From Octopus vulgaris (lineage: Eukaryota): a DNA stretch of 64,000 nt. Numbering within the stretch: the stretch's first letter is position 1; each line of letters begins with the position of its first letter. The notes under the pieces were generated by a model, which was not told where the DNA came from, did no database searches, and saw nothing but the letters and a program-made list of their open reading frames with translations. Made by a program: the position numbers and the translations under genes. The stretch is from contig OX597827.1 of assembly GCA_951406725.2 (NCBI GenBank), positions 43,958,001 through 44,022,000 of the forward strand, read 5' to 3'. This document shows, piece by piece, positions 15,316 to 42,682 of this stretch.

Positions 15316-15364
<49 letters not shown>

Positions 15365-15471
15365 ATGAAATGGATAAATGAATTATCTTGTTACGGATTA
15401 TTCTACATGTGTAGAAAATAATAAAAAGGAATTTTGTAGAATCTTCGTTCGGCTCCATTTCTTCCCTTCAC

Positions 15472-15545
<74 letters not shown>

Positions 15546-25882: not shown

Positions 25883-26067
25883 TAGCAATTAAGGGTTTAG
25901 CAACGAATTGCCTCACCACACACCGAATTTAGAAATAGCAGTCAAAGATTTATAGCTATTCTTTCTACTAAAAGGGAGATCTCAGTAAAAACACAGCACT
26001 TGAAAGGCAAACACAGACAGGTAAGAGAGAATGAAATGACGGCAATCTATCATACAATTTTAAGTCA

Positions 26068-26159
26068 CCTACGGACGTACGTTTCGAAATCAGGTTTTAG
26101 GAAAGCATAAGAATTAGAAAATTCTACCTTACCCAAACTTCTTTTCTCATCAGTGTAGG
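26068..26159 (-). ncRNA. Type I hammerhead ribozyme (mirror copy; one stem I mismatch)
   Basis: Reverse complement reads CCTACA-CTGATGA-GAAA..TTTC-GAAA-CGTACG-TC-CGTAGG. Confidence 0.75.
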
Positions 26160-26221
26160 ATACTACAATTATGAATAATTGTATATTAAATTTAATATAC
26201 AATTATTCATAATTGTAGTAT

Positions 26222-26312
26222 CCTACGCTGATGAGAAAAAAGTTTGGGTAAGGTAGAATTTTCTAATTCTTATGCTTTCCTAAAACCTGATTTCGAAACG
26301 TACGTCCGTAGG
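26222..26312 (+). ncRNA. Type I hammerhead ribozyme, canonical core
   Basis: Stem I CCTACG/CGTAGG; CTGATGA at 26228-26234; a 60-nt stem II closed by GAAA/TTTC with inner AGAATT/AATTCT; GAAA at 26295-26298; palindromic stem III CGTACG; GUC cleavage triplet ending at 26306. Confidence 0.85.
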
Positions 26313-26598
26313 TGACTTAAAATTGTATGATAGATTGCCGTCATTTCATTCTCTCTTACCTGTCTGTGTTTGCCTTTCAAGTGCTGTGTTTTTACTGAGA
26401 TCTCCTTTTAGTAGAAAGAATAGCTATAAATCTTTGACTGCTATTTCTAAATTCGGTGTGTGGTGAGGCAATTCGTTGCTAAACCCTTAATTGCTTAGTA
26501 TTACTTAAATTTTCCTCGAATGAGGCTTTTACATGCCGAAATCTACTTGGTGTAATTAATAATTATTCCAAATTATTTAATTTCACCCTTTATTGTTA

Positions 26599-26649
<51 letters not shown>

Positions 26650-27038: not shown

Positions 27039-27051
27039 CGTAAAATATATA

Positions 27052-27560
27052 AAGCTGCCTGTTAAAGGTCACTTCTCTTGTGTTTAAATGTACACTATTT
27101 CATATTGAGAATATGTTGTCCATTGAATTTTTATACATGCTAGGCCACTCGTAGTGAAATTTAAAAAAAAACTCGCTACCCTATATATATTACGCATTTT
27201 CATAAGATTAGTTCGGCATTTTTTCATTTGCTGCCGACTGAAACTGCGCTTGCGCTGTGAATTTGAAAAAAAATTATGATATATAATGATGAGACGTGTT
27301 ATTTGTCTCTAAATTATATGTTAATGTTATGGCGCGGTCATTGATGAGAATTTCGTCTAGCAAATTATCTTATTTGCTAAATAAAGTTCAAAACTTAAGT
27401 ATGACCGTAAAAAAAATAACAAGATAAAAGTTTTTATTTTTCATTCCCTTCAAAATTGCTGTTAAATGTGGTATTGGTCGTTTTTGACTACTTGTTCTAG
27501 CGTGCAAAGATGTCTGTTAAAGGTCGCTTCCTTTGTGTTTAAATGTACACTATTTTATAT
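27052..27560. repeat. Element with ~50-bp direct terminal repeats (pseudo-LTR-like)
   Basis: CTGTTAAAGGTC(A/G)CTTC..TGTGTTTAAATGTACACTATTTT at about 27059 and 27514. The second copy is preceded by TTTGACTACTTGTTCTAGC and is homologous to the reverse complement of 11910-11958. Confidence 0.65.
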
Positions 27561-30310: not shown

Positions 30311-31400
30311 TCATGCTAGCGGTGTTGGTGGTGCTACATGTTGTTGTGCTGGTGGTGCTAGTGGTACTTCGGGTGTTGGTGGTGCTAGTGGTGCTGGTGG
30401 TAGTGATGCTAATAGTGCTGGTGGTGTTGGTGGTGTTGGTGGTGCTTGAGGCACTGGTTGTGCTAGAGGCACTGGTGGTGCTAGTGGTGCATATGGTGTT
30501 GGTGGTGCTAGTGGTGCTGGTGGTTCTAGTGGTGGCGGCGGTGATGGTGCTGCTAGTGGTGCCATTAGCACCACGAGCACCACCACCACCATTAGCACAA
30601 CCAGCACCACAATCACCACTAGCACCACCAACACCACAAGCACCACTAGCACCACCAACACCAACACCACCACCACCATCACCACTAGCACCACCAGCAC
30701 CATTAGCACCACCAACACTATATGCACCACTAGAACCACCAGCACCGCCACTAGCACCACCAGCACCGTATGCACCGCTAGCACCACCACCACCACTAGC
30801 ACCACCAACACCATTAGCACCACCAGCAACACTAGCACCACCAAAACCACAAGCACCACTAGAACCACCACCACAACGAGCACCACTAGCACCACCAGCA
30901 CCACCACCACCACTACCACCAGCACCACTAGCACCACCACCACAACAAGCACCACTAGCACCACCACCACCACCACTAGCACCACCAACACCATTAGCAC
31001 CACCAGCACCATTAGCACCACCAAAACAACCAGCACCACTAGAACCACCAGCACGACCGGAACCACCACCACAACAAGCACCATCAACATCACAAGCACC
31101 ACTAGCATCACCACCACAACAAGCACCACCAGAACCACTAGCACCACCAGCACCACTAGCACCACCAACACGACTAGCACCACCACCACCACTAGCACCA
31201 CCACCACCACTAGCACCACCAGTACCACCAGCACCACTAATACCGGCAACATCACAAGCACCACCAGCAACACCAGCAACACCAGCACTACTAACACCTC
31301 CAGCACCACTAGCACCACCAACACCACCAGCACCACTAGCACCACCAGCACCAGTGGTACCACGAACACCACTAGCAACACCAACACCACTGGCTCCCTA
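30311..31400. repeat. Degenerate (CCA/GCACCACTA) minisatellite with a strand switch at about 30562
   Basis: GGT-rich 30311-30562, then CCA-rich to 31400. The TATGCACC/GGTGCATA motif is shared in opposite orientations. Confidence 0.85.
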
Positions 31401-41871: not shown

Positions 41872-41929
<58 letters not shown>

Positions 41930-42324
41930 CTTGGTCTGATCAATAAGTGTCAGGATTGTTGCTATAGTAAAGGAGTTATAGCACGCAAAGTGAAGCCGCT
42001 TGACACAGATTGGCTGTGCATGCGCACTAAGTTTTAACGTTCTTGCTCACTTCCGCTGTTTATAGCAGTGTTTAGAAATAACGTGTGTAACGTGTGATCG
42101 CCGCACTGAACATGACAGAGAAAATTGAGCAAGGAATCTACGTCAAATTGTGCAAAAAGCGATACCTGCTCAAAGCCCTACGCAATGTTTTCAGAAAGTT
42201 TTTATCGTTCCCAGCGCAATCAAGGAGATTTTGTACTACTGAAACCCGGACGTCCTTTTGGTCTGCTGAAAGCAGTTTTGATACAAACTTGGGAGACACG
42301 CATCTCATACCCAAATCTACAGTG
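41930..42324 (+). mobile_element. Mariner-derived element, second copy of the 1-504 family
   Basis: TA|CTTGGTCTGATCAATAAGT TIR; MTEKIEQG..VKLC; the same junction into the inverted internal segment. A short fragment also occurs at 20996-21035. Confidence 0.82.
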
Positions 42325-42351
42325 ACATTGTTGTTGAGATAGGCTCTCTTT

Positions 42352-42433
42352 CTTTCCTGATGAGAAGATTGCGTTTTACACCGTTTATTCCTTTGGAATA
42401 AACCAATGTTGTCTTCGAAACATATGTCGAAAG
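42352..42433 (+). ncRNA. Type I hammerhead ribozyme, canonical core
   Basis: Stem I CTTTC/GAAAG; CTGATGA at 42357-42363; stem II GAAGAT..GTCTTC with inner GTTTATTCC-TTT-GGAATAAAC; GAAA at 42417-42420; palindromic CATATG; GUC ending at 42428. Confidence 0.85.
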
Positions 42434-42622
42434 TAAAAGAATTTTAATAACATCTTCGTTCAACTCCATTTATTTACTTATACTGCACAAATTACTACAC
42501 ATTAACCCGGAGATTCTAACTTTGAATAGGTCGCTTCATCCGTGTTACTTGAGTGAATTTTGCTAACCTGGTAACTGTTTATTGAATTTTCCATGTTAAC
42601 GGTAAACAAAGGATAATTTAGA

Positions 42623-42682
<60 letters not shown>

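Follow-up and report, generated by a model that had tools for sequence, protein, structure and literature searches.

Hammerhead ribozymes in the repeats of Penelope-like retrotransposons have been reported before (PMC4209133, PMC8557442). Minimal and variant forms were described by Cervera and de la Pena 2014 (PMC4209133), and according to the available text of that study and of a later review (PMC6765202) cleavage by these ribozymes is weak and confined to dimers, monomers being inactive. Craig et al. 2021 (PMC8557442) described the Hydra clade of Penelope-like elements. The accessible parts of that account present canonical hammerheads as universal in Hydra, give a CxCX5C linker as the defining feature of the clade, propose a tie between this linker and the targeting of (TA)n microsatellites, and list one octopus family, Hydra-1_Obim. 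Here we analysed a hammerhead motif within a 64-kb stretch of Octopus vulgaris DNA (64,000 nucleotides, hereafter called the window). We read it, with a probability of roughly 0.7, as a type I hammerhead that belongs to a Penelope-like retrotransposon of the Hydra clade, truncated at its 5' end, and lies in the 3' repeat of this element; as judged from its sequence, the ribozyme would self-cleave only as a dimer paired through a palindrome.

Compared with the hammerheads of PMC4209133, as far as the available text describes them, the motif shares type I topology, a helix I of 4–5 bp, an enlarged helix II, a short palindromic helix III and a G10.1-C11.1 pair; the copies are likewise mostly solitary and truncated, and dimer cleavage with a circular template has been proposed. 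It differs in that helix II comprises about 11 bp followed by an internal loop and a distal hairpin, whereas 6–8 bp are given there, and in that the family to which the motif belongs (family A) has no unpaired base between A9 and G10.1. With the Hydra clade, as portrayed in the accessible parts of PMC8557442, the host element has in common a single ORF with reverse transcriptase (RT) followed by a C-terminal GIY-YIG endonuclease, the RW and DKT motifs, CxxC and CxH around E and N residues, a 3' repeat that contains a type I hammerhead, (TA)n ends, and tandem and inverted copies. In contrast, the zinc-finger-like CxCX5C linker is absent here and replaced by an Asn/Ser-rich one, and the unit reaches 3.6 kb as against under 3 kb there. 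The Hydra-1_Obim hammerhead also differs from that of the present lineage, and whereas Hydra-1_Obim was noted from four copies ending at one site, the copies here number in the thousands. Stem-loop II measures 47–56 nt across our lineage but 10–24 nt in 26 Hydra rows of File S2 of that paper (counted by eye). A long stem II alone is nevertheless not unprecedented, since the same file holds PLE-X1_sMoe, also Penelope-like, with a 53-nt stem-loop II; this spike-moss element differs in having no endonuclease and in targeting 28S rDNA, and its structure is flagged by the authors as non-canonical. Non-LTR retrozymes, in the available descriptions (PMC7229834; bioRxiv 10.64898/2026.07.22.740005), are ORF-less tandem units each carrying a type I hammerhead and thereby resemble a second family in the window, family B, although the units of the latter are longer (about 585 bp, with a long stem II, versus roughly 220–350 bp). 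The motif studied here is unlike them in coming from an autonomous coding element.

The lineage was not found in the literature on octopus or Hydra-clade Penelope hammerheads or on extended stem II, Repbase and Dfam being outside this comparison. Long-stem-II variants may already be described elsewhere (Luense et al. 2017; Arkhipova et al. 2017), which could lower the novelty. What appears to be new is the long stem II with proximal covariation, the sequence support for pairing between ribozymes, and the lost linker.

The hammerhead motif and the element that carries it

The motif occupies 42352-42433 of the window (+ strand) and is a complete type I hammerhead of 82 nt. A preliminary description had proposed a canonical core with a palindromic helix III at this place, and both reading of the sequence and a type I descriptor found every part where it had been put. 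Stem I is formed by 5 bp between CTTTC (42352-56) and GAAAG (42429-33), the core consists of CTGATGA (42357-63) and GAAA (42417-20), and stem-loop II (42364-416) measures 53 nt. Helix III is represented by the palindrome CATATG at 42421-26 (ACAUAUGU in the hammerhead), which lies within a longer palindrome, ACATATGT, at 42420..42427. The cleavage-site dinucleotide TC (42427-28) follows, and the core thus agrees with the CUGANGA, GAAA and UH elements of type I hammerheads. Since C17 is 42428, the cut is predicted after C42428, the same position as had been proposed. All these features lie on the + strand.

Only two motifs in the 64 kb were retrieved by the type I descriptor, at 42352 and 26228, and 60 simulated 64-kb sequences (order-3 Markov) gave no match to its strict version. 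In the whole genome the lineage hammerhead pattern matched 7,798 times, compared to 7 for a control. The 82-nt motif folded with stems I and II formed at a z of -2.38, and 4 of 200 shuffles folded equally well; the pairing probability was 0.80 for the closure of stem I and 0.95 for G10.1-C11.1. Rfam returned no hammerhead in 42100-42625 even at E<=10, probably because the 53-nt stem II exceeds its models, and we do not take this as a defining failure. For the whole window, the 150 Rfam matches listed of 465 contained only microsatellite-driven miRNA.

The surrounding sequence (42328..~42620, +) is a 5'-truncated pLTR/3'UTR of a family A element. Over 42328-42618 it shares 93% identity with the upstream pLTR of a nearly full-length copy (L091). 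This copy was reached by walking upstream from family A copies; its parts are, in order, an upstream pLTR and its hammerhead, the RT and endonuclease frames, and a second pLTR with hammerhead followed by (TA)n. A search with 42330-42620 gave 2,326 genome candidates, and among the best 40 that were scored, the 39 non-self copies were 94–96% identical. Family A copies have ragged 5' ends and a common 3' end before (TA)n, with (TA)n ending 17 of 20. This solitary, truncated copy is likely to be inert, an ordinary remnant. Immediately upstream, a 5' fragment (41927-42327, +) with a frame starting MTEKIEQGIYVKLC is joined directly to the Penelope remnant; we take it to resemble a mariner element.

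The features by which Penelope-like elements are recognised were all present: partial tandem pLTRs, inverted 5'-truncated copies, a hammerhead in the pLTR, and a single ORF with RT and GIY-YIG endonuclease, the RT motifs FDI and GLYRDD occurring in frames of 778–934 aa. The position of the hammerhead downstream of this ORF is fixed in several subfamilies. For the RT there were 11,063 genome candidates, and an unbroken 899-aa frame was counted by eye in 20 of the 125 scored. Two loci, L123 (G000:C1:119513500-119523000) and L141, contain head-to-tail units of 3.6 kb that are 99.9% alike and have frames of 836–899 aa, and their subfamily is likely to be currently active. Tandem units are 99.8–99.9% alike within a locus and 98.5–99.1% between loci, which is compatible with rolling-circle copying as well as with later duplication at the DNA level. 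Four assembled contig sets cover the element without giving start or end sites, and one contig (antisense strand) presumably carries a cDNA template-switch adapter; neither was used as evidence, of expression or otherwise.

With regard to the endonuclease, neither Pfam nor a PDB sequence search recognised the element ORF, and Foldseek gave no match at E<=0.001, its top eight rows all being GIY-YIG nucleases. The predicted model (mean pLDDT 80.6) aligned with I-TevI (Z 9.4, rmsd 2.4, 89 aligned) and with T4 EndoII (Z 9.1, rmsd 3.3, 108 aligned), and the GIY-YIG residues Y, YxG, R, E and N are invariant in the protein alignment. Within CxxC..E..N..CxH, residues C110, C113, E116, N129 and C138 are invariant and H140 is conserved in at least 90% (40 rows), while CCHH was not seen on inspection by eye. 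An apparently invariant P16 proved to be an alignment artefact and was dropped. The Hydra-clade RT motif SDKT was found in 17 of 20 ORFs and R[MI]RW[KLR] (e.g. RIRW) in 10 of 20; the remaining ten are apparently 5'-incomplete, and RWL replaces RWK. Judged by these motifs the element fits the Hydra clade, the published reference proteins having been compared by eye and the homologues in the tree being unnamed. Naiad identity was rejected, because the endonuclease of Naiads is N-terminal and canonical hammerheads are missing from them. The 16 ORFs of the lineage formed one group of ladder-like order (SH-aLRT 100 in a quick tree without bootstrap), and from L128 to L142 they make up a single series of subfamilies along which the RT-to-endonuclease linker and the 3'UTR lengthen.

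Other repeats in the window also carry hammerheads. Family B is an inverted pair of the ORF-less unit of about 585 bp (25884..26604) with its own long-stem-II hammerhead at 26222-26312 (+). Out of 2,493 genome candidates the best 40 were scored, at 97–100% identity; the tandem spacing was 583–587 bp, with up to four units among the arrays listed. Its pattern matched 608 times versus once for the control, some matches belonging to other families. No ORF encoded by the unit was seen, and an autonomous partner was looked for and not found. The family fits a very young, retrozyme-like repeat as far as its sequence tells. A degenerate third hammerhead (27328-27413, within about 27040-27560, +) has a stem-loop II of about 44 nt and, in relatives, the palindrome ACCTAGGT; the best 40 of its 789 candidates were scored, the others being 86–90% identical, and the core was intact in 5 of 15 fetched copies. 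Hammerhead-like motifs that have the palindrome ACGTACGT and differ in the length of stem II were also seen in other repeat families (L124:735 on the - strand, L145, L152, L158 and L161). Two further repeats were observed in the window: a long, GC-richer tandem repeat of 9/18/27 bp at 30321-31391, possibly coding, with an inverted arrangement near 30474-30656, and a 62-bp unit at 1237-1398 in near-perfect inverted and tandem copies around (TA)n.

Fixed 3' ends, (TA)n and the lost linker

Downstream of the ribozyme the element ends at either of two fixed 3' termini. The first (end I) is reached after 42434..42482 (+), about 50 nt past the ribozyme, a stretch which carries ATCTTCGTTCAACTCCATTT; eleven partial opposite-strand matches adjoin the scored copies of 42330-42620, and seven of them stop at this one position. 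The extension to the second (end II) spans 42483..42620 (+) and runs into the next ORF start in tandem elements. A (TA)n run, the likely insertion target, follows at 42627..42680 (+); its start at about 42627 bears out the (TA)n that had been reported some 200 bp downstream. The resemblance that had been pointed out at 15441-15460 before another (TA)n is also real. It is part of a sister-subfamily remnant at 15361..15479, which lies between two (TA)n runs and consists of an inverted part (15361-15403) and a direct part (15404-15479). The latter matches the tail of that sister subfamily (L133) with 100% identity across 76 nt and starts inside helix III.

Loci L093-L142 provided 38 ribozyme rows, eight of which run into an ORF start, leaving 30 (29 distinct sites). 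(TA)n was present downstream of the ribozyme in all 30, at a distance of 47–82 nt in 16 and of 198–219 nt in 14. In these raw counts it is the two fixed distances that argue against chance. No (TA)n occurs at the unit-to-unit junction of the L123 tandem, indicating that the unit itself does not include the run.

The CxCX5C linker is absent from all 20 of our ORFs of over 680 aa. Of 103 homologue matches, 45 were set aside because no endonuclease could be recognised in them; among the other 58, 56 have the linker. In its position there is an Asn/Ser-rich stretch with a conserved SE.NP.R..F motif instead of the cysteines. As the nearest complete relatives (P0001 and P0003) retain the linker cysteines, the absence represents a loss, although linker-less relatives from other taxa were only partly sampled. 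In the tree the lineage is nested among relatives that have the linker, and we therefore file it as a derived variant rather than as a typical Hydra member. Since the (TA)n ends have been kept while the linker is gone, the linker is apparently not required for targeting, and the sequences argue that (TA)n targeting can do without it.

A probable helix III between ribozymes, and the alternatives

In a single molecule only 2 bp of helix III can form, with a probability of about 0.02, whereas two copies could form 8 bp with a self-duplex energy of -7.0 kcal/mol, probably through the palindrome at 42420..42427. The two central bases of the palindrome cannot pair inside one molecule at all, so that any pairing of these bases has to be between two ribozymes. 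Loop III reads CATATG in L128, L091, L137, L126, L127, L131 and L134, CATG in L125 and L138, CATGTG in L132, L133 and L130, and CACGTG in L135, L123 and L142; L124 had no ribozyme of its own in the stretch examined. Along the RT tree the palindrome changes from CATATG by way of CATGTG to CACGTG, the central pair thus going from U-A through U.G to C-G, although this two-step path is that of one lineage. The wobble form CATGTG gave 1,878 genome matches and its mutational mirror CACATG, which is mismatched, only 48, counts that are not independent because of master copies; judged from the stem II sequences among the matches listed, CATGTG apparently rose in more than one subfamily. Both mixed palindromes slip out of register in their best computed duplexes (-6.0 versus -5.2 kcal/mol), and energy alone therefore barely separates them. 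RNA editing (A>G) was considered as a source of the CATGTG excess and set aside as a general cause, as there was no general strand bias (A>G 17 and T>C 19 among singletons of the family A pLTR, 1 versus 2 among shared changes), which leaves a site-specific effect. Taken together, helix III likely forms between two ribozymes.

Under the preferred reading, head-to-tail transcripts of the element would carry two ribozymes, and these might pair via the palindromic helix III and cut out RNA of unit length. The two fixed 3' ends are located about 50 and 210 nt past the cut site and are followed by (TA)n. Because insertions end past the cut site and may be longer than a single unit, the RT template would have to cross an uncut or re-joined site; a circular RNA or a tandem transcript left uncleaved is the likely template. 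A bolder version holds that an active Hydra lineage without the linker zinc motif keeps strict (TA)n targeting, so that this motif would not be the targeting device, that the hammerhead is an obligate dimer which evolved by wobble and then compensation, and that the 50-nt stem II serves as an arm by which the RT-endonuclease docks onto a circular template. Taken as a whole we regard this version as tentative and rather doubtful.

The reading that comes next holds that the fold is a passenger or structural signal, kept as a platform for binding or priming by the RT-endonuclease, with cleavage weak or dispensable. One subfamily whose 778-aa ORFs are intact (L128, L129 and L140) has the core change U4C fixed, and this change was seen by eye in 9 of the first 100 rows of the lineage pattern. 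Changes at U4 lower hammerhead activity, and fixation of U4C beside intact ORFs suggests that the element may get by without strict catalysis; in the youngest subfamily, moreover, stem I contains a mismatch. Every one of the 30 mapped 3' ends falls past the cut site, which means that uncut RNA suffices as template, and Naiad elements proliferate without hammerheads, the function of which is called unclear in the accessible text of PMC8557442. What makes a mere platform unlikely in our view is that G5, A6, G8, A9, GAAA and U16.1 are invariant in the 14 representatives (which were picked by a core-bearing pattern), and that a binding site would not obviously need a catalytic core together with a self-pairing palindrome.

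Stem II bears on a further reading, in which the motif is a distinct subtype active as a monomer, its long stem II folding back to engage stem I in tertiary contacts. The 14 hammerhead representatives used here, 13 of 14 cluster representatives (L089 left out) and the window copy, were derived from 70 distinct motifs and aligned by plain MAFFT. In this alignment 89.8% of 373 cells pair, a value that none of 500 shuffles attained and that dropped to 34–47% when the pairing was slid. Two-sided changes occur in 10 of 27 pairs, namely in 7 of the 11 pairs of proximal stem II and 1 of the 5 of helix I, among others; it should be underlined that this count alone is not clearly beyond shuffles (32 of 500), the sequences being related and not independent. 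Compensatory changes are thus present in homologous copies, among sister subfamilies, and they count in favour of the preferred reading. They cannot be claimed between the 42.3-kb and the 26.2-kb ribozymes, where the preliminary description had placed them: the best blastn E between the two elements was 0.17, so homology was rejected, and without alignable sequence their differences are not covariation. A stem-loop II of about 40–60 nt does recur in at least three unrelated families of the window, and to that extent the proposed spread of a long-stem-II form over several families stands. A functional subtype is not borne out, as no stem II sequence is common to the families. Within the lineage, the 11 proximal base pairs covary and the distal hairpin keeps TTATT/GAAT, as a monomer subtype might predict, but this hairpin is the least conserved and weakest helix (82.6% paired cells, as against 94.3% in helix I and 90.1% in helix II) and has lost 8 nt in L127. 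The centre of the palindrome, moreover, evolves as if paired although it is unpairable in the monomer. We consider this reading very improbable. A chance motif or an assembly artefact, which the AT-rich, repetitive window, a folding z of only -2.4 and the missing Rfam match might suggest, is practically negligible in view of the simulations, the genome match counts and the fixed position downstream of the ORF.

Implications for Penelope-like elements

Both the role of the hammerhead in Penelope-like elements and the way in which microsatellites are aimed at are treated as open questions in the accessible text of Craig et al. 2021 (PMC8557442), and the lineage offers three natural experiments on them. 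The first provides sequence evidence for a helix III between two ribozymes. In the second, (TA)n ends persist although the linker has been lost, an observation that speaks against the hypothesis of targeting by the linker. The third, the U4C core in a successful subfamily, bears on whether cleavage is needed. In addition, one genome holds about 7,800 motifs of a form that Rfam missed at the 42.3-kb locus, and young, intact copies make bench work feasible. If the reading of a linker-free lineage with an obligate dimer were true, the at least 20 intact 899-aa copies and the perfect tandems would lend themselves readily to work on the still unsolved transposition cycle of Penelope elements.
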